Assembly (NCBI GenBank): GCA_947467125.1
Contig: CANIGN010000003.1
Span: 1 to 35,660, forward strand
Length of the DNA stretch: 35,660 nucleotides
Origin: Bacteriovoracaceae bacterium
GTDB lineage: Bacteria; Bdellovibrionota; UBA2428
Direction of reading: 5' to 3'
Part shown: one piece after another, positions 3,186-26,839 of the stretch
Position numbering within the stretch: position 1 is the stretch's first letter
Layout: every line of letters begins with the position of its first letter
Made by a program: the position numbers and the translations under genes
The notes under the pieces: generated by a model
Seen by the model: the letters and a program-made list of their open reading frames with translations, nothing else
What the model was told of the DNA's origin: nothing
Database searches by the model: none

Positions 3186-3895
3186 TAGCGAACCAATCCT
3201 GCCTCATAAACTCGAGCGGCTTGCTCGTAATAAGTTCCCGGAAAATCTACTTCAAGTTTTTTCACAAGAGTCTCAATCTCTTTATCTCTTGAAAGAGCTT
3301 TTAAAATCCTCACTCTTGCAAGAATCGACTCAGCAGCAATCATCGTTTTTTCATTTTTTGAAAGCTCTTCAAAATAACTTAAAGCTTCTGTTTTTTTATT
3401 CATGGACTCAAGGGTGTACCCTTTTCCAAGTTGCGCCGTTAAGGTCAAAACATCAGAAGGCAAATTGTTTCCAAACTTAATCACATCTTCAAAGTTTTTC
3501 AGGGCTGAATCATATTTTGCCTCTAAAAAATCTAGAGAAGCCAGACGTATACGACTTGATTGAGCCGCATTCGTCTTTGGAAATTCTGCAACAATCTCGC
3601 TGAGGGTTTTTCTCATCTTATCTTTTTTATCTTGGGACCATTCCATTCGAAGCTTTACAAATTCTTGGCTAAAAAGACGCGCATTAGACTTGAGTCCTTC
3701 GCCCTCTGCTTTTTCAACTTCAAAAAGCTTTTCAGTCGCTAACTTTTCAGTTTTGTCAGACTGTTCTTTTACAACATATTTCCCAAAAGAGATCGCCATC
3801 ACAAGAAGTGCAGCACCCACAAATAAGGTCCAAAAACGTTTACTCTCTAAAACACTGAGGATGCTTTGTTGAAAAGGTGTCAATTGATTGTCCAT
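3185..3895 (-). CDS. YfgM-like membrane-anchored tetratricopeptide-repeat protein
   Basis: One N-terminal TM helix, then TPR-like helices (EFPKTNAA, DFPGTYY). The start is probably ATG 3895 (MDNQ) rather than 3913. Stop overlaps the bamB start. Confidence 0.75.
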   Translation of the reverse strand: MDNQLTPFQQSILSVLESKRFWTLFVGAALLVMAISFGKYVVKEQSDKTEKLATEKLFEVEKAEGEGLKSNARLFSQEFVKLRMEWSQDKKDKMRKTLSEIVAEFPKTNAAQSSRIRLASLDFLEAKYDSALKNFEDVIKFGNNLPSDVLTLTAQLGKGYTLESMNKKTEALSYFEELSKNEKTMIAAESILARVRILKALSRDKEIETLVKKLEVDFPGTYYEQAARVYEAGLVR

Positions 3896-3967
3896 AAAAT
3901 GCGAGGCTACCATGACATATTCATGCTTTCAGCTAGCCGGGAGTTAAAAAACTTTTCCAAGAATGGT

Positions 3968-3973
3968 TATAAT
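3968..3973 (+). promoter_or_regulatory. sigma70-type -10 box, probable leaderless promoter
   Basis: Perfect TATAAT ending 6 nt before ATG 3980; no Shine-Dalgarno sequence. Confidence 0.5.
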
Positions 3974-3979
3974 AACCCT

Positions 3980-4744
3980 ATGCGGCCTTTTAGAAAGTTA
4001 AAATATTTTCTCCTCGCAGGAGCTTTGCTCAACACCCTCTCCCTTTATGCACAAGAAAACATGAACGGGAATCTCTACGACGACTACACTGCCTTTGACA
4101 GCGACCCTGTGCAACTTGACGAAGAAGTCAGTCGATACTTTGGGCGTTTCTTTGAATCTGATTTTCTTTTAGGTGCGGGATTATTTACAGGCGACCTTGC
4201 TAAATCAAATGCTTCCGGATTTGACCTCGGTGTCCGCTTTGTTTTTTATTTTGATAAATTATGGGGAGGCGAATTAGGCGCTGGATATTTTTCCCACAAA
4301 AGTTTTTACAATCAAAGCAATACAGGTCTTACAAAACTCAACATCAACCTTGATACAGTGATGATCCCCATGAGCCTTGGCCTTCGCTATTCTTTTGACC
4401 GTGACAATTTGCCTCGAGGGATTTCAATGATGAATCCCTATGTCGCTGTTGCAGGCGAGCTTATGTTTCGCAGTGAAGGCGTAAAATATGACTCAAATAC
4501 AGATGCCCTTACCGATGCAGACCTCAAAGCAAAATTTGCTCCAGGCGCCGTGGTTAACACAACAGCTTTTGGTGTGAATATTGGGGGAGGCTTTGCCTTT
4601 GACGTCTACAAAAGCAAGATTCTTTTGGGAATGGACGTACGCTATCACTTTTTATACTGGCCAGACGCAGAGATTATGGTCGGCGCTCTTAGCCGAACAG
4701 GCGGATACTTCACCGCAATGGGACAAGTTTGTTATAATTACTAG
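3980..4744 (+). CDS. Outer-membrane beta-barrel protein
   Basis: Start taken at ATG 3980 (MRPFRKLKYFLLAGALLNTLSLYA, a signal peptide); amphipathic beta strands rich in G/F/Y; aromatic C-terminus (CYNY). Confidence 0.7.
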   Translation: MRPFRKLKYFLLAGALLNTLSLYAQENMNGNLYDDYTAFDSDPVQLDEEVSRYFGRFFESDFLLGAGLFTGDLAKSNASGFDLGVRFVFYFDKLWGGELGAGYFSHKSFYNQSNTGLTKLNINLDTVMIPMSLGLRYSFDRDNLPRGISMMNPYVAVAGELMFRSEGVKYDSNTDALTDADLKAKFAPGAVVNTTAFGVNIGGGFAFDVYKSKILLGMDVRYHFLYWPDAEIMVGALSRTGGYFTAMGQVCYNY

Positions 4745-5334: not shown

Positions 5335-7047
5335 TTATTTAGGAAGCTGATCTCTTCTTTTGCGATGAAAGCTAATCGCAAAACGATGCGCCTCATCACG
5401 AATTTCCGTTACCAAACGCAAGACCTCAAGACTTTTAACTGCTTTTGGAAGCTTTACACCCGGCAAAAAAATACGCTCCTCTGAAATCTCTAGTTTGTGA
5501 GATTTAAAGCTACGCTCCGTTCGTGCTTTTGCAAGCCCTACAGCTGGAAAATGCACCCCTACTTCTTTCATAGCTAAAAGAACGCTCTCTAGTTGAGCTT
5601 TTCCCCCGTCTACAATCAGCAAATCAGGACGAGGACTATCGGGCTTCCCATAACGCCTTCGAACAACTTCCCTTAAGCTTCCAAAATCATCCTGCCCCTC
5701 GATCCCTTTGATTATATAATTTCGATACTCGGAACTTTGTTTTTTTCCACCTTCAAAAACAACCACGGCTGCAACGTTTTCACTTCCTTGAAAATTAGAA
5801 ATATCCAAACATTCAATGCGATTAACCTTATGATCTAACTTTAAAAACTTTCTCAATTGTTCCACTGAATCGCGACGCTTTTCTCGAAGCTGAAGCTGCT
5901 CTTCACCAACAGATCGAGCGTTCGAAAGAGCCAAATCCCATAGCTTCCACAATTTATCACCACTATCTGGAGCGTTTATTTTTTCAAAAGCGAAAGGGAG
6001 ATCCTGTTTTTCCTCAGAGGTTTTTTTCAAAAAATCAGAAAGCAGAGTTCTTTGCTCTTGAGAAAACTCAGGAGAAATTACAACTTCCGATGGAATCTCT
6101 GCCTTTAAATAATAGCTCGAAAGCAAGCTCACAAACTCCTCTTGGTCCACAAAGCTTTCTTCCGCAAGAATGGGGAAATGTTTACGCCCCCACCACTTTC
6201 CCTCTCGAAACTGAAGCAAAATCAAATCTAAATCAGAATTTTCCTGAGGATTTTTAAAGAAATCAGCGGGCCAATAAGCCCATACATCACGACTTTTTTG
6301 ATCATTTAAATCCACAGCTCGTTGCTCTGTTTGCAAATCATCAAGAGCTTTTAAACGATCCCGAACTTTTCCAGCCTCTTCAAAATGAAGCTGCTCAGAA
6401 AGCAATTCCATTTCTTTTTTCCACTCTTCCTTGAGACTGAGATTCTCCCCTTTCAAAAAAGCAATAAAATCAGAAATCTGCTTTGAATACTTCTCCTTAT
6501 CGACATAACTCACACAGGGAGCTGTGCACTGACCGATCTGATAGCTCAAACAAGGTCTGGAGCGATTGGCAAACTCAGTATCCCTGCAATCACGAATCAA
6601 AAAAGCTTTCGAGGCCAACTGAAGAAGTTGCCTGAGTGCATAAGGATTGGGGTAAGGGCCAAAATAAAGTCCCGAGTTAGCACGAGCTTTTCGAGCATAG
6701 TACGCTCGAGGAAAATCATGATTTGTATCGATCCAAAGATAGGGATAAGTCTTGTCGTCTTTTAATCGGATGTTGTAGCGCGGACGATGTTTTTTGATGA
6801 GCGTATTTTCAAGTAAAAGAGCTTCAATTTCTGTGTCTGTTTGCAAAAATTCTAGCGATTTAATTTTTGAAACGAGCACATGAGTTTTGGCACTTTCATG
6901 TTTGCCACGAAAATAACTCTGAATTCGAAGGCGAATGTTTTTTGCTTTTCCTACATAAAGGATGTCACCCGCTTCATCCTTCATAATATAGCAACCCGGA
7001 GTTTTAGGAGCGTCCGCGATTTGCTCATCTAAAAGTATCCGAGTCAT
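5335..7047 (-). CDS. uvrC: Excinuclease ABC subunit C (lacks the C-terminal HhH2 domain)
   Basis: GIY-YIG domain (PGCYIM, LYVGKAKN, EALLLE, PRYNIRLKDDKTYPY), Cys cluster (C..RPCL...IGQCTAPC), UVR domain (FEEAGKVRD), RNase H-like domain (ECLDISN, DDF, VDGGKAQ, RDEAHRFAI). Start probably ATG 7047. Confidence 0.95.
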   Translation of the reverse strand: MTRILLDEQIADAPKTPGCYIMKDEAGDILYVGKAKNIRLRIQSYFRGKHESAKTHVLVSKIKSLEFLQTDTEIEALLLENTLIKKHRPRYNIRLKDDKTYPYLWIDTNHDFPRAYYARKARANSGLYFGPYPNPYALRQLLQLASKAFLIRDCRDTEFANRSRPCLSYQIGQCTAPCVSYVDKEKYSKQISDFIAFLKGENLSLKEEWKKEMELLSEQLHFEEAGKVRDRLKALDDLQTEQRAVDLNDQKSRDVWAYWPADFFKNPQENSDLDLILLQFREGKWWGRKHFPILAEESFVDQEEFVSLLSSYYLKAEIPSEVVISPEFSQEQRTLLSDFLKKTSEEKQDLPFAFEKINAPDSGDKLWKLWDLALSNARSVGEEQLQLREKRRDSVEQLRKFLKLDHKVNRIECLDISNFQGSENVAAVVVFEGGKKQSSEYRNYIIKGIEGQDDFGSLREVVRRRYGKPDSPRPDLLIVDGGKAQLESVLLAMKEVGVHFPAVGLAKARTERSFKSHKLEISEERIFLPGVKLPKAVKSLEVLRLVTEIRDEAHRFAISFHRKRRDQLPK

Positions 7048-7054
7048 AAGCTCA

Positions 7055-7083
7055 AGAATGCCACGCACTCAAGATCTTCGCAA
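7055..7083 (-). promoter_or_regulatory. sigma70-type promoter for uvrC, probably leaderless
   Basis: TTGCGA(7083-7078)-N17-CATTCT(7060-7055) with an extended TG, ending 7 nt before ATG 7047. Confidence 0.5.
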
Positions 7084-7093
7084 CGAGACTTGT

Positions 7094-7122
7094 TTGCTCC
7101 AAAAAACTTCGCTAACTATGAT
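7094..7122 (+). promoter_or_regulatory. sigma70-type promoter for the glucoamylase-PTS operon
   Basis: TTGCTC-N17-TATGAT, ending 17 nt before ATG 7140. Confidence 0.55.
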
Positions 7123-7139
7123 TCAGTTCCCAGAAACAT

Positions 7140-8489
7140 ATGAATTTTAACTTTCTTAATTTTTTAAATCTCTTTTTTATTTTGCAAATTTCTTTTCTCC
7201 AAACTTCAAATGCAAAAAACATTCAAATCACTCCTGACGATCCTCTTCAAAAAACTTTCGAATCTTCTTTAAAAAATCTTTTTCAAAATCTTGATCGTCA
7301 AGACATTACAAAAGGTGCTGTCATTGCCTCTCCAAGCAAAGTTGCGCCCAATTATTTTTTTCATTGGACTCGAGACGCAGCCCTCACTCACCAAGCTCTT
7401 TTCCACGTTTACTCCCAGACAAAAGACCCTGCCCTTAAGCAAAAAATCAAACAAAGCGCTCTCAATTGGATTGAATTTGAAACAAAAGCCCAAAAAAACG
7501 CAGAAGAAGCAACGGCCTCTCTAGGAGAACCACGCTATCACACCGATGGCAGAGTGAATGTCGACCCGTGGGGTCGCCCTCAAAACGATGGTCCTGCCGC
7601 AAGAGCGATAAGTCTCAGTTTATGGGCACTTTCTTTTCTCGATCAAAACGAACACGCTTTTGTTGAAGAAAAAATTTACCGTGCTGAACTTCCCGCACAA
7701 AGCCTTCTTAAAAAAGATCTTGAATATGTTTCCAAGCACTGGCGTGAGCCTTGTTTTGACCTTTGGGAAGAAGTCAAAGGATTGCACTTTTTTACTCTCG
7801 CCCTTCAAAGAAAAGCTCTCCTTTTAGGCTCAATCCTTGCCGAAAGAATGAACGATCAAGGCGCTGCCCTTTGGTACAAAAGCCAAGCTACTGAAATCAA
7901 AAAAGTGCTTATTTCCTTTATCTCACCTCTCAATCATTCCATAAGTGCAACCCTTTCTCAGACAGAGGGATGGGGACATAAAAAATCAAATCTTGATATC
8001 GCTGTGATTATAGGAAGCAATCACGCTTTTTTTAGCCATGCTTTTTTTGAAGGTGATGAAATTTTTGTGGACTATCAAAAAGAATTTCTAGAAACGACTC
8101 AAACCCTGGAAAATAAATTTAAAGAGCTCTATCCGCTCAACCAGGAAGACCCAAAACTTGCAACAGCTTTTGGTCGTTATCCGGAAGACGTCTATGATGG
8201 AAACGACTTCTCAGGAGGCAATCCCTGGTTTATTGCAACTCATGCAGCAGCTGAATTTTATTGCCAATACTCAAAAAGACTTAAAACTCTAGGAGCTCCT
8301 CTTTCAAACAGAGAGGAATTTCATGCAAAAGGATTAAAATTCCTAGAGCGAAGCGCTCGTCATATCAATCAAGAAAACGGAGAAATGACCGAGCAATTTT
8401 CGCGTTTCAACGGTTATTTAATTGGTGCAAGCCATTTAACGTGGAGCTATGCTAGTTTCATCAGCGCGTATTTAAGCTGCGCCGACTAG
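7140..8489 (+). CDS. Secreted GH15 glucoamylase of the fungal/eukaryotic type
   Basis: Signal peptide (..LQTSNA|K). Fungal glucoamylase motifs: ASPS..PNYFFHWTRDAA, LGEP, WGRPQNDGPAARA, FDLWEEV (catalytic acid), GRYPEDVYDG..GGNPWF, EQF (catalytic base), LTWSYASF. No starch-binding module. Confidence 0.92.
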   Translation: MNFNFLNFLNLFFILQISFLQTSNAKNIQITPDDPLQKTFESSLKNLFQNLDRQDITKGAVIASPSKVAPNYFFHWTRDAALTHQALFHVYSQTKDPALKQKIKQSALNWIEFETKAQKNAEEATASLGEPRYHTDGRVNVDPWGRPQNDGPAARAISLSLWALSFLDQNEHAFVEEKIYRAELPAQSLLKKDLEYVSKHWREPCFDLWEEVKGLHFFTLALQRKALLLGSILAERMNDQGAALWYKSQATEIKKVLISFISPLNHSISATLSQTEGWGHKKSNLDIAVIIGSNHAFFSHAFFEGDEIFVDYQKEFLETTQTLENKFKELYPLNQEDPKLATAFGRYPEDVYDGNDFSGGNPWFIATHAAAEFYCQYSKRLKTLGAPLSNREEFHAKGLKFLERSARHINQENGEMTEQFSRFNGYLIGASHLTWSYASFISAYLSCAD

Positions 8490-8521
8490 GAATACGTAAG
8501 AATACGAAGGATGGACAAAAA

Positions 8522-9241
8522 ATGAATAATCGTTACGAAGAAATTCTTCAGGCATTAGGTGGCTCCGCCAACCTTCCCCAAATCGATGCTTGTATTTCAC
8601 GCCTCAGAGCGACCGTACAAGATACAAAACTTGTAAATGAATCTATTCTCAAATCTTTAGGCGCTGAAGAAGTCATCGTCGCGGGCAACAATGTTCAATC
8701 TATTTTCGGAGCCGAATCAGATCATATTCGTGAAGAAATTCAAAAACTTATAGGGAGTAACCCCACTGTGAAAATCAATCGTCAAATTATTCTTGGCTCC
8801 CCCATAAGCGGAAAAGTCCTCACTCTTTCAGAAGTCCCCGATAAAGTTTTTTCTGAAAAAATTCTTGGCGATGGATTTGCCATTGAACCAACTGAAGGAA
8901 AAGTCATCGCTCCTGTTGATGGAACGATTGTCAATATTTTCAAAACTGGCCACGCTTTGGGACTCGAAACAGAAACAGGTGTTGAAATTCTCATTCACGT
9001 GGGAATCGATACCGTAAAAATGAACGGCGATGGTTTTGAAGCTCTCGTCCTTTACGGTCAAAAAGTAAAAGCTGGACAAGAACTTATTCGCTTTGACCTC
9101 GAAAAAGTTCGAAGCCAAGCAACCTCTACAATTAGCCCTGTCGTTATTACGAACATGGATCGCGTTCTTCAAATTCACAAAAAAGGATTAGAAACAGCTC
9201 AAGCCGGACAAGAAATCGTCAGCTTAGAATTGAATATTTAA
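8522..9241 (+). CDS. PTS glucose-family EIIB-EIIA fusion (no EIIC)
   Basis: N-terminal EIIB (ALGG..N, DACISRLR with the phospho-Cys); C-terminal EIIA (VPDKVFSEKILGDGFAI, HALG, LIHVGIDTV). No TM segments. Confidence 0.92.
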   Translation: MNNRYEEILQALGGSANLPQIDACISRLRATVQDTKLVNESILKSLGAEEVIVAGNNVQSIFGAESDHIREEIQKLIGSNPTVKINRQIILGSPISGKVLTLSEVPDKVFSEKILGDGFAIEPTEGKVIAPVDGTIVNIFKTGHALGLETETGVEILIHVGIDTVKMNGDGFEALVLYGQKVKAGQELIRFDLEKVRSQATSTISPVVITNMDRVLQIHKKGLETAQAGQEIVSLELNI

Positions 9242-9257
9242 AAAAAACTTAAAAGAT

Positions 9258-9527
9258 ATGACACTCGAAAAAACATTTAAACTTGAATCTCAAGACGGAC
9301 TCCACGCTCGACCTGCAGGCCTTTTTGTAAAATGCCTTGCACCTTACCAAGTCACTGTTGAAGTAGAGCTTCGTGGACAAAAAAAGAATGGGAAATCCAT
9401 CATGAGCCTCATGTCTCTCGGAGCTTCTCCCGGAGATGATCTTAAAATTACCGTAACAGGTAACGATGCCGACAGCGCTTTAAAATGTATTGAAGATCTG
9501 TTTGCAAAAAAATTCTCTGCTGAATAG
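9258..9527 (+). CDS. ptsH: Phosphocarrier protein HPr
   Basis: GLHARPA (His15) and KSIMSLMSLGA (Ser46); 89 aa. Confidence 0.96.
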   Translation: MTLEKTFKLESQDGLHARPAGLFVKCLAPYQVTVEVELRGQKKNGKSIMSLMSLGASPGDDLKITVTGNDADSALKCIEDLFAKKFSAE

Positions 9528-9537
9528 GTCGGTTGAA

Positions 9538-11232
9538 GTGCAAGTCCTCAAAGGAAAAGGTTCCTCTCCTGGTTTTGCGTTAGCGCCTGCCTTCATTCTT
9601 AAAAACACAAATCTTCAATTTTCGCATGAGCAGATATTCGATGACATCCACGAATCAAAACGCTGGAAGGCTGCGCACTCACAAGTCGTTCATGACCTGA
9701 GTGAACTTCAAAAAAAGTATTCTCAAAAAGGCCCCCAAGAAAGTGCTGAAATCGCTGAGGCCCACCTCATGATGGCTCAAGATCCAGAATGGATTTCAAA
9801 TATTGAAAGCTTCATGGGTCAAAAACATCAATGCGAATACTCGGTCAACAAAGCAAGCGAAGATTTCGCCAAAATGATCGAGTCTTTGGACGACCCCTAT
9901 CTTCGTCAACGTGCTCAAGACATACGTGATGTTGCGCGAAGAATTTTACGAGCTCTCGATGAACCCAATTCTCATGAAGAAAAAATAACGGGCGACCATA
10001 TTCTTGTTGCCGAAGACCTTCTTCCTTCTGAACTCCTTTCTCTTTACAGTCCTCAACTTAAAGGACTGGTTTTACAAAAAGGAAACCCTACTTCTCACAC
10101 AACCATTCTCGCTCGAACTTTTGAAATCCCTACCATTCTCACCGTGAATGGGGTTATGGAAAAAGTTCGCGCTCACGACGAAATCGCCGTGAGTGGAATG
10201 AGTGGCATCGTCACCATTAATCCAGACGCCTCCGAAAAGAAAAACATTCAAGATAAAATACAAAGAGACCTTTTTGAAAAAGAAGAATTAAAAAATTACA
10301 TCTCTGTTAAATCTGTTACTCGTGATGGCGTGGCCATTGAAGTTGCCTCCAACCTCAACAGCGCTCACGACTTAAATTTTGCTCTCGGAAAAGGCACCGA
10401 AGGAATCGGCCTCTTTCGTACCGAGTTTCTTTTGATGGATCGAAGCGCAGCTCCTAGCGAAGAAGAGCAGTACCAAGTTTATCGGAAAGTCATTGAATCT
10501 GTCTTTCCTCACAAAGCGATCATTCGAACTTTTGATATCGGTGGGGACAAGCAAGTGAATTATCTCAACTTGCCTAAAGAAGAAAATCCCTTTCTCGGCC
10601 TCAGAGGAATTCGCTATTGTCTTAAAAACATCGAACTCTTTAGAACTCAAATCAGAGCTCTTTTGCGAGCCGCTCAACACGGAAATCTCGGAATCATGAT
10701 TCCGATGGTGACCAAAGTAGAAGAAGTTTTGGAATTTAAAAACCTTCTTAAAAAGTTTCAAATCGAACTTTTAAACGAAGGAAAAAAACTCGAAAAATCT
10801 CCTGAAACGGGCATCATGATCGAAGTTCCCTCTGTGGCGATGATTGTCGATCAACTCGCTTCTCATCTTGATTTCTTTAGCATTGGAACCAACGATCTTG
10901 TTCAATACCTTTGTGCAGCAGATCGCATGAATAGCAACGTGGCTGATCTACACGACGCCTATCACCCTGCTGTTTTAAGAACGCTCAAATTGATTTCTGA
11001 TGGCGTCAAAAACACTTCTTGTTGGCTGGGAATGTGCGGAGAAATGGCTGCAAAATACGACTACCAGCCTCTTCTTTTGGCTCTTGGATTCAAAGAACTC
11101 AGCGTTTCTCCAGGCGCTGTCCTTCGAACTCGAAAGCAGATTCTTTCCCTCGACATGGAATCCTGCCACAAGATCCTTCAAAAGGCGCTTTTAGCAGACA
11201 GTTCCGAAAGCCTTAAAGCCGCGCTTTCTTAG
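9538..11232 (+). CDS. ptsI: PEP-protein phosphotransferase (PTS enzyme I)
   Basis: TSHTTILAR (phospho-His), GIGLFRTEF, RTFDIGGDK, EENPFLGLRGIR, FSIGTNDL, CGEMA. Start probably GTG 9538 rather than the track's 9490. Confidence 0.95.
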   Translation: MQVLKGKGSSPGFALAPAFILKNTNLQFSHEQIFDDIHESKRWKAAHSQVVHDLSELQKKYSQKGPQESAEIAEAHLMMAQDPEWISNIESFMGQKHQCEYSVNKASEDFAKMIESLDDPYLRQRAQDIRDVARRILRALDEPNSHEEKITGDHILVAEDLLPSELLSLYSPQLKGLVLQKGNPTSHTTILARTFEIPTILTVNGVMEKVRAHDEIAVSGMSGIVTINPDASEKKNIQDKIQRDLFEKEELKNYISVKSVTRDGVAIEVASNLNSAHDLNFALGKGTEGIGLFRTEFLLMDRSAAPSEEEQYQVYRKVIESVFPHKAIIRTFDIGGDKQVNYLNLPKEENPFLGLRGIRYCLKNIELFRTQIRALLRAAQHGNLGIMIPMVTKVEEVLEFKNLLKKFQIELLNEGKKLEKSPETGIMIEVPSVAMIVDQLASHLDFFSIGTNDLVQYLCAADRMNSNVADLHDAYHPAVLRTLKLISDGVKNTSCWLGMCGEMAAKYDYQPLLLALGFKELSVSPGAVLRTRKQILSLDMESCHKILQKALLADSSESLKAALS

Positions 11233-11266
11233 GCTTTTATCTCTCCTCCTCCGCCTCAATTCCCCC

Positions 11267-11295
11267 TTTACCCGCCCATGAAGCTAGTCTATGTT
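11267..11295 (+). promoter_or_regulatory. sigma70-type promoter of the rpsB operon
   Basis: TTTACC-N17-TATGTT immediately before the conserved leader motif. Confidence 0.45.
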
Positions 11296-11300
11296 CATTT

Positions 11301-11415
11301 GCACAACACACGCTGGGATAAAAATTGAAATAATCCGAGCGTTTGGATCAAGCCAAGCGGGCCTCCGCAAAAGCTTCCCAAGCGTTAAACTCAGCGGAGG
11401 AACATCGGATTATAG
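11301..11415 (+). ncRNA. rpsB 5' leader (t44 / S2 autoregulatory RNA)
   Basis: ACAACACACGCUG...CAGCGGAGG mirrors the E. coli ACACACG...CGUGGAGG signature. AUAAUCCGA (11330-38) is complementary to UCGGAUUAU (11405-13), at the position of the known pseudoknot. Confidence 0.75.
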
Positions 11416-11476
11416 AAAACAAAGTCGCAGCAAGATCGAAAGCTCAAGCATTAGCGAACTTAAAAAAGGAAAAAAC

Positions 11477-12337
11477 ATGGCTACACAAATCACAATGAAA
11501 GACCTCCTCGAGGCAGGCGTTCACTTCGGTCACCAAAAGAGCCGCTGGAACCCAAAAATGAAACCTTACATCTTCGGAGATCGTAACGGTATTTACATCA
11601 TCGACCTTCAAAAAACTGTTCTCTTAACTCGCGAAGCTTTAACATTCGTGACTCAACTTTCTGCAAAAGGAAAAAAAATCCTTTTCGTTGGAACAAAATC
11701 ACAATGTAAAGACGTCGTGAAAGAAGAAGCAGAACGCGCAGGTTGCCCTTACGTAACAGAGCGTTGGTTAGGTGGAACTCTTACGAACTTCCCCACTATT
11801 CAAACATGTCTCGATCAAATGCAACAAATGGACGACAAAATCAGCTCAGGAATGGCTGATCAATTGAGCGCGAAAGAGCGTTCTGCGTTCGACAAAGAAC
11901 ATGAGCGTCTCTTGCGTAACTTAGGGGGCGTTCGTCACATGAAAGACAAACCCGGCGCGATTTTCATTATCGATCCAATGAAAGAACACAACGCAGTTAA
12001 AGAAGCGAAGAAATTGGGAATTCCTATCATCGCGATCACAGATACAAACTGCGATCCAGATGACGTTAGTTTCGTGATTCCTGGTAACGACGACGCTCTT
12101 AAATCAATCAAGCTTTTTGCAGCAGCTGTTGCAGACGCTTTCCTTGATGGCGCTCGTATCCACGAAGAAAAAATCCGTGCTTTCTCTGACAAACGTGAAA
12201 GCGCTCCTGTAGCAGCAGCTCCTAGCGCTCCCGCTATCAGCAAACCTTCAGAAGAATCAACAACAACTGACCGCGAAGGCCGCACAATCAACGTTGAAAA
12301 ACGTCGCAGCATTCGTTCATCAGACGAAAACAACTAA
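11477..12337 (+). CDS. rpsB: 30S ribosomal protein S2
   Basis: MKDLLEAGVHFGH, WNPKM, RWLGGTLTN, DTNCDP, PGNDDA. True start is ATG 11477 after AAGGA; Ala/Pro-rich C-terminal tail. Confidence 0.98.
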   Translation: MATQITMKDLLEAGVHFGHQKSRWNPKMKPYIFGDRNGIYIIDLQKTVLLTREALTFVTQLSAKGKKILFVGTKSQCKDVVKEEAERAGCPYVTERWLGGTLTNFPTIQTCLDQMQQMDDKISSGMADQLSAKERSAFDKEHERLLRNLGGVRHMKDKPGAIFIIDPMKEHNAVKEAKKLGIPIIAITDTNCDPDDVSFVIPGNDDALKSIKLFAAAVADAFLDGARIHEEKIRAFSDKRESAPVAAAPSAPAISKPSEESTTTDREGRTINVEKRRSIRSSDENN

Positions 12338-24091: not shown

Positions 24092-26839
24092 TCAAGCAGC
24101 TACTTTTTTAGGTTCGAGAGTTGTACGTATACCAACTTCAATATCTTTAGCATTCTCTAAAATAAAGCATGTTTCTTTAGATAAAAACGCTTTCATTTCT
24201 TGATTGATCTTTTCTAATTTTCGAATGTTCATACTGTTGGCATCACAACAAACAATTCCAACTTTAGCATATCGAGATAAATCAGAAGCATCTGGCGCCT
24301 CTAAGCATGGACGAGTGTGTAGAAAAATATAATCGTACTGAAGACTTAATTCGATTAATAAATCCTTAAGGTTTTGTGACGCTAATCTATAGACAGAAGG
24401 AACCTGAAGAGGATCTCCAGTGATGACATCTAACCCCTCATTGACCTTAAACGGATAAATATTAACTTGTTCTTTATGCTGATAAAGTTCACTTACCCCT
24501 CCATTGAGAGGAGCTCCAGTGATTTTTTGAATTGAATTATTCGTCAAATCAGACTCTAAAATAAGAACCTTTTTTCCCGTACTTCCAAAAAAAGCACCCA
24601 AGTTCAGGGAAATAATTGCCGATTTCAAGGAATCCTCACTTGAAGTAAAAAGAACGACTTTACCTGCCAATGAGGAGAAAATGTTTTCCAATTTAATTCC
24701 CATACGCAAGTAACTCAAGTCAGTTACGCCATCTACCAGAGAACCTTCCTGAAATAAGTTACTTTTAGTTGAAGGCACAGCTCCTAAGACAGAATTGCCA
24801 CGCTCCTCAAATGATTTAATTGTTGTTAAAACTGGATCACCTAACTCTTTTAAAAAAGAGACACAAAATCCCACAAAAAAGCTTAAAAATAAAGAAATCA
24901 ATAAAAATAAGTAAAGAGAAACTGGTTTCTTTTCTTCTATAGGATCATAAAAAAAACTAATCTTTTTTCGACCCTTAAACTCAACTATTTCCATTTTCAA
25001 AAGAGAGTTTTTTAAAAGTTCTAAAGTTGACTGATTCGTTTTAATATAATCGCTCAACTCTGCTAACTGAGCTTCTTTTGCCGTCTTATCATTGAGCATA
25101 AAAGTTAACTCATCTAAAGCTTTACTTAACTCTAGGACCTTTGCCTCATAGAAAGAATTCTCACCTTTAATTTTCTCTAACGTTTCCCTTTGTTGGTAAA
25201 GTGAAGACTCATCGGGCATATACAAGTCATCAACCTTTAAGTCTTTTAAAGAAATATTTTTTTTCTTTTCTACTTCTTTAGTCGCTTTCTGTAAACTTTC
25301 CGAAACTCGCCTAGCTATGACACTATCCTCATCAACTCCTTGAATCTTTAGTTGATTTTGCAAATAAGCCATATTCGAAATATCTTGAATAGTGGTTGAA
25401 TAGTAATTTTTTTCTATCTTGCTCTTCTCATTTAGTAAATCAAGTTTTTTTTCAATCCCTGAAATCTTTTCGTTAAGCTTTGACTCAAAAAAAGCATTGC
25501 CTTGAATAGCATTCTTTGCCGACTGAACTTTATCTTTTAAATCCCTAATAATTTCTTTACTTATTATAGGGATTGAACTTGATTCATTTGGCTTCGTATC
25601 ACCATTTTCTGGAAAAGTTATATTTAGTGAATTTTTTAATTCTACGCCTAACTCTCGTGTCCCAATCTTTTTATTTAAATAAGAATTAATTTCGTCAAAA
25701 ACATTGTTCAACTCTGAAACCTTTTCTGAATTGAAAGACGAATTTTCATTTTTTCCAGGGACTTTAGATGGACTTTTGGAATTCTCCAAATACTTTAAAG
25801 TATTCGCTAATGAATTAGACAAATTTTTAAAGACAAAACTGTCCTTTTCTATCCCTTGTGCCCTCAACTCACTTTTTTGTTTTGATAAGCCCGCAAGCTC
25901 TTGACTTAACCCGTAAGCGTCGTCATCAGCGCTTCTTATGCCTTTAATCTTTTTTTCGATATCAGTAAGCTTTTCTTGAAACTGTGATTCTAAAACCTTA
26001 TTTCCACTTATAGCCATTTTTGTGGCTTGTAATTGACTTTGCAAAGAATAGATAACCGCCGTATCGACAAGCGGAATAGATTGAGAAAGCTTCAATTTTT
26101 TATCATTACTTTCATTTAAAGTTTTTTGAACATTATCAACCTTTTCTTCGATTATTTTTCGAGCCGCAACAAGCTCTTCCTGATCATTCACTGCAAAATA
26201 GTCCGCAAGAAGTTTCGTAACTTTTTCTGAGTAATTCTTTAATAAAACGGGGTTTTCGTCGTTCAATAACACAGAAAAATTAGATTGAGTGTTTTTTTTA
26301 TTCCTTGACGCTTCAACACTAAAAGTCATTCGACTATTTAAAAAAGACTTTATCTTTTCTTTTGTTCGATCCTCGAAAGAAGCTGAGTTAACTCCTTTCA
26401 AATCAATACCAAATATTTTTGCAATATCAGCATCACCTAAAGCTGCTTTATAGCAAAAACTTAAAAAAGATTCTGACTTCAAACTAGCCAAAGCCTTACC
26501 AACATCAACATCACTTGAATCAATTCCAGTATTAACAGTCATATCCAAGGCGCTAAAAAGAGTATTGTTTTTGGAGTTATTATATATTGCTGTAATATTT
26601 CTTTCGTACCATGTTCCTTTGCAAGCATATAAAAAAGCCAATGCGACATAGAATAAAATAGCTGTAATAAAAAGGAGTTTTTTATGTCTAAAACCTTTCC
26701 GAAGAAAATCACTTACATCAAGATACTCTTCAGAATCATTGTTGTTTTCTTTAAATAGACCTGGTCCAACAACTTCAAATTGTCCAAGAGAACTATGCTC
26801 CGCACTTTTTCTAAGTTCTTGAGTATCTAACTTCTTCAC
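24092..26839 (-). CDS. Wzc/GumC-like polysaccharide co-polymerase with a degenerate BY-kinase domain
   Basis: Wzz-like N-terminal TM, long coiled-coil periplasmic region, second TM, VLGAVP, then a P-loop-fold domain with altered motifs (TSSEDSLKS, ILESDL, FLHTRP). Confidence 0.8.
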   Translation of the reverse strand: MKKLDTQELRKSAEHSSLGQFEVVGPGLFKENNNDSEEYLDVSDFLRKGFRHKKLLFITAILFYVALAFLYACKGTWYERNITAIYNNSKNNTLFSALDMTVNTGIDSSDVDVGKALASLKSESFLSFCYKAALGDADIAKIFGIDLKGVNSASFEDRTKEKIKSFLNSRMTFSVEASRNKKNTQSNFSVLLNDENPVLLKNYSEKVTKLLADYFAVNDQEELVAARKIIEEKVDNVQKTLNESNDKKLKLSQSIPLVDTAVIYSLQSQLQATKMAISGNKVLESQFQEKLTDIEKKIKGIRSADDDAYGLSQELAGLSKQKSELRAQGIEKDSFVFKNLSNSLANTLKYLENSKSPSKVPGKNENSSFNSEKVSELNNVFDEINSYLNKKIGTRELGVELKNSLNITFPENGDTKPNESSSIPIISKEIIRDLKDKVQSAKNAIQGNAFFESKLNEKISGIEKKLDLLNEKSKIEKNYYSTTIQDISNMAYLQNQLKIQGVDEDSVIARRVSESLQKATKEVEKKKNISLKDLKVDDLYMPDESSLYQQRETLEKIKGENSFYEAKVLELSKALDELTFMLNDKTAKEAQLAELSDYIKTNQSTLELLKNSLLKMEIVEFKGRKKISFFYDPIEEKKPVSLYLFLLISLFLSFFVGFCVSFLKELGDPVLTTIKSFEERGNSVLGAVPSTKSNLFQEGSLVDGVTDLSYLRMGIKLENIFSSLAGKVVLFTSSEDSLKSAIISLNLGAFFGSTGKKVLILESDLTNNSIQKITGAPLNGGVSELYQHKEQVNIYPFKVNEGLDVITGDPLQVPSVYRLASQNLKDLLIELSLQYDYIFLHTRPCLEAPDASDLSRYAKVGIVCCDANSMNIRKLEKINQEMKAFLSKETCFILENAKDIEVGIRTTLEPKKVAA

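Follow-up and report, generated by a model that had tools for sequence, protein, structure and literature searches.

In the textbook enteric layout of the glucose phosphotransferase system (PTS), the ptsH-ptsI-crr operon stands apart from ptsG, which encodes the EIICB permease, while the Bacillus-type ptsG-ptsH-ptsI operon encodes EIICBA, HPr and EI together. Bdellovibrio-like organisms are usually said to live on the amino acids, nucleotides and lipids of their prey. In a comparative PTS study, B. bacteriovorus is listed with an EI/HPr chain that is either incomplete or missing, which the authors put down to its lifestyle (PMC2405797). Among bacterial GH15 glucoamylases, the secreted GamA of Legionella pneumophila is described in a review as a eukaryotic-like enzyme that degrades both glycogen and starch, where it is treated together with the type II secretome (PMC4158876). 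Here we describe a four-gene block that joins a GH15 glucoamylase to the PTS proteins EIIB-EIIA, HPr and EI in a 35,660-nt stretch of DNA (the window) from an uncultured relative of Bdellovibrio found in lakes. This stretch corresponds to contig C3 of a metagenome-assembled genome (MAG) of 1.17 Mb in 89 contigs, with an estimated completeness of 66.4%.

In the list of open reading frames (ORFs), the four genes lie close-packed on the plus strand between uvrC and rpsB. The best explanation is that, besides GH15, the block encodes the cell's only PTS phosphorelay, which belongs to a single glucose-family PTS divided between two loci; the second locus would encode an EIICB permease together with a cytoplasmic GH1 enzyme. 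We hold with moderate confidence that an exported glucoamylase works with this split system, the distal EIICB importing glucose and the relay of the operon phosphorylating it. In the proposed scheme, GH15 would pass to the periplasm or further and free glucose from alpha-1,4-glucans (glycogen, starch or maltodextrin), EIICB would import the glucose, phosphoryl groups would reach it from phosphoenolpyruvate (PEP) by way of EI, HPr, EIIA and EIIB, and glucose-6-phosphate would enter glycolysis. Either of the two EIIB domains could hand the phosphoryl group to the sugar.

The locus shares features with each of the known systems. As in enteric bacteria, the relay operon of the window is without a permease, a PtsG-type EIICB is encoded elsewhere in congeners, and EIIA is soluble. 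In contrast to the enteric layout, the EIIA-containing gene is first among the pts genes, EIIA carries an N-terminal EIIB, the operon is headed by a glycoside hydrolase, and the permease of the genus is paired with GH1. Outside the genus, 13 loci have the Bacillus-type EIICBA-HPr-EI set beside GH15; this set is also found in genera g2, g8 and g10, and the window EIIBA is about 50% identical to the B-A part of EIICBA; however, the window lacks the EIIC domain of about 400 residues and has GH15 in the block. The window GH15 and Legionella GamA, its nearest described counterpart in bacteria, are both bacterial, eukaryote-like, catalytic-domain-only enzymes of about 440 aa, and homologues of the window GH15 include sequences labelled Coxiellaceae; they differ in that the relevant section of the review mentions no linkage of GamA to PTS genes (PMC4158876). 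With fungal glucoamylases the window GH15 shares the (alpha/alpha)6 domain and the motifs WGRPQ(N/R)DGP, LWEE, GRYPED and (S/T)EQ. It differs from them in being a bacterial operon gene whose product, 449 aa in total, has neither linker nor starch-binding domain, and identity is low; for the majority of fungal entries, the best phmmer stretch runs from about residue 57 to about 375.

Layout of the block and its four proteins

The features of the locus are as follows.

5335..7068, minus strand: uvrC, the divergent upstream flank (Pfam GIY-YIG, UVR and UvrC RNase H domains)
7069..7139, no strand: uvrC-GH15 intergenic region with conserved blocks and a weak sigma-70-like match (direct reading, four-genome comparison)
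7140..8489, plus strand: GH15 glucoamylase, fungal-type, 449 aa, leader at about residues 1-25 (PF00723, 230.9 bits, residues 52-444)
8522..9241, plus strand: soluble EIIB(Glc)-EIIA(Glc) fusion, 239 aa (PF00367 and PF00358; TIGR00826 and TIGR00830 passed)
9258..9527, plus strand: HPr phosphocarrier, 89 aa, with H16 and S47 (PF00381, TIGR01003, motifs)
9538..11232, plus strand: Enzyme I, PEP-protein phosphotransferase (three PEP-utiliser domains; TIGR01417, 550.5 bits)
11206..11238, plus strand: hairpin over the EI stop codon, followed by UUUUAU (folding, minimum free energy -12.5 kcal/mol)
11477..12337, plus strand: rpsB, the downstream flank and first gene of the rpsB-tsf-pyrH-frr cluster (PF00318; ATG 11477)

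The ORF list and the sequence confirmed the first-pass annotation of four co-oriented genes with gaps of 10-32 nt between uvrC and rpsB, and all domains of the block pass their Pfam cut-offs. The gaps measure 32, 16 and 10 nt, taking GTG 9538 as the start of EI. The listed ORF begins at TTG 9490, which would overlap HPr; GTG 9538 lies 10 nt past the HPr stop, and the TIGR-type EI family model aligns from residue 20 onward of the TTG 9490 ORF. We regard GTG 9538 as the more likely start. For uvrC, alignment of orthologues from residue 7-8 indicates that the real start is probably Met8, near 7047. Contigs assembled from independent sequencing runs span 6500-7204 and 7299-11800, and identical gene order was found in three other MAGs. 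The gene order is genuine, these independent contigs and the three MAGs excluding an assembly artefact. Runs X2 and X3 gave identical contigs, depths and differences despite separate samples and studies; since they may be one data set, they were counted as a single piece of support.

The GH15 protein matches PF00723 with 230.9 bits (cut-off 22), covering profile positions 17-426 of 427. Its motif residues are W144-G-R-P-Q, W209-E210-E211, R346 and E418, and W144, R146, W209, E210, E211, R346 and E418 are invariant in 10 aligned orthologues with identities down to 33%. The same motif residues line up with PDB entry 27xj_A and are unchanged across the genus, down to 53% identity. This entry, a 438-aa 'glucan 1,4-alpha-glucosidase', is the best PDB match (E 5.8e-64, full length, aligned over GH15 residues 56-443), and all ten PDB matches at E≤1e-5 are either 27xj_A or entries titled glucoamylase. 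We take the matched glucoamylase entries (2vn4, 1ayx, 3eqa, 1agm and others) to be fungal enzymes. The bacterial-type GH15 model TIGR01577 scored 57.1, far under its cut-off of 820.7, so that with the PDB matches the label 'fungal-type' is borne out. The protein consists of the catalytic domain alone (residues 52-444), without a starch-binding domain and without the N-terminal beta-sandwich of bacterial/archaeal-type GH15. From these matches, the substrate is predicted to be an alpha-1,4-glucan.

The N-terminal leader of GH15 is the highest-hydropathy 12-residue stretch of the whole protein, and a hydrophobic leader ending small-x-small was present in 10/10 aligned orthologues. The window leader contains no basic residue, and that of congener G003 has K2. 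We consider the enzyme to be probably exported, to the periplasm or beyond. A second fungal-type GH15 of 509 aa, about 33% identical to the operon GH15, is encoded in genome G000 of the genus (contig C38, L022:1162-2691, minus strand). This protein starts with a hydrophobic stretch, and its gene is flanked by those for a ribose-phosphate pyrophosphokinase and a PilZ-domain protein, with no link to any PTS gene; the paralogue was also found in G001, G002, G003 and G005. In G006, the PTS-linked GH15 (L027, about 9712-11062; also L055) is broken into ORFs of 375 and 163 aa by a TGA or a frameshift within the gene, which could reflect a pseudogene or an assembly error. This genome additionally carries an intact, unlinked second GH15 copy, 47-49% identical.

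Each of the three relay proteins exceeds the cut-off of its family model. EI scored 550.5 bits against TIGR01417 (cut-off 341.7) and has the motif residues H203 and C516, and HPr, with H16 and S47, scored 80.5 bits against TIGR01003 (cut-off 47.9). In the fusion protein, the EIIB domain (about residues 1-80, with C24) scored 55.8 against TIGR00826 (cut-off 45.75) and the EIIA domain (about residues 90-239, with H144 and H159) scored 162.2 against TIGR00830 (cut-off 97.5). Thus, the expected motif residues were all found, in agreement with the earlier statement that the active sites of all four proteins are intact; the catalytic and substrate roles of these residues in GH15, EIIB, EIIA, HPr and EI are assumed from model enzymes, which for GH15 are the fungal ones. 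The fusion contains no EIIC domain, and its gene is preceded by an AAGGA Shine-Dalgarno-like site about 10 nt 5' of it.

The soluble EIIB looks redundant, since the distal EIICB has an EIIB domain of its own. A decaying remnant is nevertheless ruled out: over six genome pairs the EIIB domain has a dN/dS of 0.02-0.08, equal to that of the EIIA domain (0.03-0.06). The EIIB Cys is present in 6/6 EIIBA orthologues. In congener G004 (L054:11332-12108) the EIIB motif reads C-I-S-S-L-R, compared with C-I-S-R-L-R in the window, so that the first Arg past the Cys is lost; in E. coli PtsG this residue is important. Stand-alone EIIB-EIIA proteins (PF00367 and PF00358 without PF02378, 250-330 aa) were found in other bacteria, which rules out a unique status for the window protein. 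Some of them lie on long contigs (e.g., P0055, P0073 and P0114); entries named 'glucose PTS transporter subunit IIA' have the same EIIB-EIIA domains, and many of them, lying on contigs 1-3 kb long, may represent pieces of EIICBA. The EIIC-less EIIB-EIIA architecture is uncommon, not unique.

The promoter-like sequence reported ahead of GH15 proved weak. A consensus scan called no sigma-70-like promoter in the uvrC-GH15 gap and found 2 promoter-like sites in 6900-11600, compared with 6.3 ± 2.9 in shuffled sequence; the best match by eye, near 7093, agrees at 8/12 positions. Two blocks in the gap, TTGTTT (7090-7095) and GCTAACT (7111-7117), are invariant in four close genomes whose coding regions differ at a dS of about 0.6-0.9. 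Because uvrC diverges from the same gap, these blocks are assignable to neither gene. The hairpin at 11206..11238 was not called by a terminator scan and its folding energy of -12.5 kcal/mol is not significant (z-score -0.72; 43/200 shuffles fold at least as well), making it at most a possible weak terminator. On the plus strand inside the block, the same scan returned one weak match only, within GH15. The four genes are predicted to be co-transcribed.

Linkage of GH15 and PTS genes in relatives

The same four-gene block is present in 5/6 congeners (G001, G002, G003, G004 and G006). Its position is between uvrC and rpsB in G001-G003, while in G004 and G006 topA precedes it. We also looked at the uvrC-rpsB site in five relatives, and in four of them (G004, G006, G010 and G011) the two genes are directly adjacent; in the fifth, G012, uvrC falls outside the locus examined. 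These empty sites indicate that all four genes came together into the position between uvrC and rpsB, and the word 'inserted' used in the first-pass annotation is apt.

To survey GH15 loci more widely, the best 80 of 302 in named genomes were compared. PTS-query matches were found near GH15 in 25 of these 80, and 24 were counted, 5 from the genus of the window and 19 from outside it; L106 (Sorangium) was left out, as its EI-like match is incomplete and falls at the edge of the locus. Six of the 19 outside loci have the order GH15-EIICBA-HPr-EI, six EIICBA-HPr-EI-GH15 and one GH15-EIICB-EIIA-HPr-EI. The rest comprise two PTS operons convergent with GH15, two with a fused EIIA-HPr-EI, and two that are cut by contig ends. 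Outside the genus the relay stands next to a full-length EIICBA in 13 loci. The other 55 of the best 80 loci have no PTS gene in the flanks examined, some of them short.

Across 301 evenly sampled genomes of the phylum (GH15 at E≤1e-30, EI by its N-domain, co-occurrence tallied by hand), GH15 was detected in 108/301, EI in 52/301 and both in 36. GH15 occurs in 36/52 EI-positive versus 72/249 EI-negative genomes. The two genes lie within 10 kb on one contig in 17 of the 36, representing 7 genera and 5 families: 6 are from the genus of the window, and 11 are from six other genera of four other families. G088 stands apart from these 17, the GH15 near its EI being of a distant 510-aa type. As the sampled genomes are related, the counts are not independent events. 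Together with the congeners and the 19 outside loci, they bear out the expectation that GH15 would be found beside ptsH and ptsI in other genomes, and the variety of GH15-PTS arrangements argues for repeated retention.

Two Bdellovibrionota loci (L072:8697-11291 and L114:1-2272, both minus strand) encode a fused EIIA-HPr-EI of 864 aa and at least 757 aa, respectively, beside GH15, and in the phylum sample roughly twelve genomes have open frames of 840-927 aa around the EI N-domain. The GH15 and PTS genes of L081 (Streptomyces griseus MAG), L092 (Flavobacteriaceae MAG) and L064 (Pseudomonadota MAG) nest among Bdellovibrionota in trees, and these contigs may be mis-binned or mislabelled.

The distal permease and the probable origin of the split

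PTS_EIIC has no match in the operon, nor any in the MAG of the window (66.4% complete). In the rest of the genus, 6/6 genomes encode a single PTS_EIIC, at a locus separate from the operon. Thus, the earlier description of a PTS with no permease holds for the operon and is not supported for the system. Likewise, the idea of a compact GH15 module with a dedicated PTS stands insofar as the block is a conserved unit, present in 5/6 congeners and moved as one, and loses support where it implied a permease-less system. The EIIC gene encodes a 512-aa PtsG-type EIICB with its own C-terminal EIIB domain. It scores 616.2 with the glucose-specific model TIGR02002, above the cut-off of 591.8, and 630.1 with the PtsG equivalog NF008301, below the cut-off of 647. 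In G002, EIICB is on the same contig as the operon, about 60 kb off.

Directly 3' of EIICB lies a GH1 gene whose 466-aa product has no leader and matches best, among NCBIfam models, a plain GH1 beta-glucosidase. Its C-terminal motif is FSWLNGYKKRYG, and we take motifs of this kind to be a signature typical of 6-phospho-beta-glycosidases. The pairing of a PtsG-like permease with GH1 is unusual. The EIICB-GH1 module is at L047:7244-10199 in G002 and was also seen at L048-L050, L037, L039 and L042-L044. When EIICB, GH1 and two neighbouring genes of G002 were used as queries against the MAG of the window, the only match was to the EIIBA of the operon itself, in its EIIB domain. Since EIICB and its neighbours are all missing, the region is most likely unassembled in this MAG. 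In G003, whose GH15 is 97% identical to that of the window, the EIICB-GH1 module is on a contig of about 3.8 kb.

An inventory of glucose and PTS genes was made for five genomes of the genus (G000-G004). All five have a single EI, that of the operon (one PF05524 match each), and none has a mannose-type EIIC (EII-Sor) or an HPr kinase. EIIA-Ntr was found in 1/5: the match is in G003, on a contig of small size, and the listed contamination of that MAG is about 5%. Phosphofructokinase was present in 5/5 and phosphoglucose isomerase in 4/5 genomes, and glucokinase, of either the Glk or the ROK type, in 0/5. Within the families searched in these five genomes, the PTS is the sole route that could phosphorylate glucose.

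Sequence relationships point to two sources for the split system. From residue 2 onward, the window EIIBA aligns to residues 408-644 of a 645-aa EIICBA with 50% identity. The five EIIC-less B-A proteins form one clade (100/99) among the B-A parts of EIICBA proteins, and the trees suggest that the window protein is an EIICBA minus the EIIC domain. GH15 of the genus clusters with the GH15s that head GH15-EIICBA-HPr-EI blocks (SH-aLRT 92, not starred). In the sister genera g5-g7, EIIA, HPr, EI and EIICB are encoded consecutively, two of the three (G010 and G011) having GH1 next, and the EIICB of the genus is 69-73% identical to theirs. The EI of the genus forms a separate long-branch clade (SH-aLRT 100) and is not sister to the EIs of the sister genera. 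Genera g2, g8 and g10 of the same family have EIICBA-HPr-EI and, on a different contig, GH15.

The EIIC tree splits deeply into two clades (100/100). Clade 1 contains the EIICB of the genus, those of the sister genera, L072 and L081; clade 2 holds the other 14 GH15-linked permeases. Clade 1 passes PtsG cut-offs, with L072 and L081 scoring 714.6 and 690.7 against the PtsG equivalog cut-off of 647. Clade 2 is under every curated cut-off, with similar scores for glucose and N-acetylglucosamine models. As the permeases belong to different deep clades, we could rule out that the distal EIICB is the detached membrane half of a GH15-linked EIICBA. The operon would instead derive from a GH15-EIICBA-HPr-EI block after loss of EIIC, and of a second operon (EIIA-HPr-EI-EIICB-GH1) the genus would have retained EIICB-GH1, the relay genes having been lost. 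We infer that complementary loss from two PTS systems is the most economical reading of these relationships.

Weighing the explanations

Several observations weigh against a glucoamylase working with a split glucose PTS. As the MAG of the window contains no EIIC, the complete system is inferred from congeners, and one of these, G005 (65% complete), has the EIICB-GH1 module and no detected operon genes. The GH15-linked permease clade that is commonest elsewhere is the one this genus has lost, and the FSWLNGYKKRYG motif of GH1 beside the retained permease, if we are right about this signature, means that the substrate could be a beta-glucoside and not free glucose. As the deep B-A and EI nodes lack resolution and the trees are not rooted, it is parsimony that gives the direction of domain loss. 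The linked GH15 of G006, with its internal TGA or frameshift, also counts against this reading. Neither a consensus promoter nor a terminator backs a single transcript. In the phylum sample, the genes are not adjacent in 18 of the 36 genomes that have both (on different contigs in 17, and 577 kb apart in G234), and 72 of 108 GH15 genomes have no EI, showing that GH15 needs no PTS.

The main alternative, which we consider unlikely on balance, is that the block is a relic, in which GH15 was tied to an EIICBA now lost, the relay serves only the import of beta-glucosides through EIICB-GH1, adjacency persists by inertia, and glucose from GH15, if used, enters another way. A relic would fit the placement of the permease, which falls outside the deep clade that holds most GH15-linked permeases, and also the sister genera g5-g7, where the same EIICB heads or follows a full relay operon, GH1 is downstream in G010 and G011, and GH15 is not nearby. 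GH1 itself, leaderless and with what is presumably a phospho-beta-glycosidase-like motif, would fit as well, and in G006 the linked GH15 is disrupted with its pts genes intact. However, GH15 stayed in the block through a move between two genomic sites, and its motifs are invariant across the genus even at 53% identity. With Glk and ROK at 0/5, the genomes searched offer no kinase for glucose imported otherwise. Moreover, the retained EIICB passes the cut-off of the glucose-specific model, and L072 and L081, from the same EIIC clade, also adjoin GH15.

The sugar could also have another source than glycogen or starch, as the GH15 family spans several specificities; a trehalase (GH15 trehalases have been described), a glucodextranase or an isomaltose glucohydrolase would be examples. 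The window enzyme lacks a starch-binding domain, but the ten PDB matches at E≤1e-5 are all glucoamylase or glucan 1,4-alpha-glucosidase and the shared motifs are invariant, making another specificity decidedly improbable. We give still less credence to a signalling PTS, in which the main task of EIIB-EIIA, HPr and EI is to signal the state of carbon or PEP supply, as when phosphorylated EIIA regulates other proteins, and GH15 is co-regulated. The lack of a permease in both the operon and the MAG of the window speaks for signalling, and the strong purifying selection on the soluble EIIB (dN/dS 0.02-0.08), despite the EIIB domain of EIICB, hints at an extra role. Against it, a cognate EIICB is encoded in 6/6 congeners, the homologous relay lies beside full-length EIICBA in the 13 outside-genus loci, and the usual regulatory branches are missing, with HPr kinase in none of five genomes and EIIA-Ntr in the one small contig of a partly contaminated MAG. 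The reading we prefer remains a glucose PTS split over two loci that receives its sugar from an exported glucoamylase.

Two further ORFs of the window have no Pfam family. One, of 915 aa (24092-26839, minus strand), occupies a stretch of low GC content (0.32-0.34, compared with about 0.41 elsewhere) and adjoins the gene for a transglutaminase-like/TPR protein; the other, of 292 aa (3866-4744, plus strand), is hydrophobic near its N terminus and precedes a gene of the MAPEG family.

All protein families involved are known, and the system looks like an ordinary one for taking up glucose, in an unusual split layout. As no part is a new protein family, the value of the finding is ecological and evolutionary, not mechanistic. 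A literature search that covered neither subscription journals nor supplements found no published description of GH15-PTS linkage; the Peredibacter genome paper names phosphotransferase in the context of two-component systems. About one third of the 301 phylum genomes encode an exported-looking fungal-type glucoamylase and about one sixth encode EI, and the two are neighbours in roughly half of the genomes where both occur. We speculate, with low confidence, that many Bdellovibrio-like bacteria, generally seen as poor users of sugar, run a glucoamylase-to-glucose-PTS module on alpha-glucan from prey or the environment, that two operons have here become one hybrid, and that EIIB-EIIA may have a role beyond the relay, such as sensing the glucose flux from digested prey. 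The GH15-PTS pairing would offer a concrete route for the use of polysaccharide-derived glucose in uncultured members of the phylum, and the layout in this genus would be an example of two redundant operons cut down to one split system.

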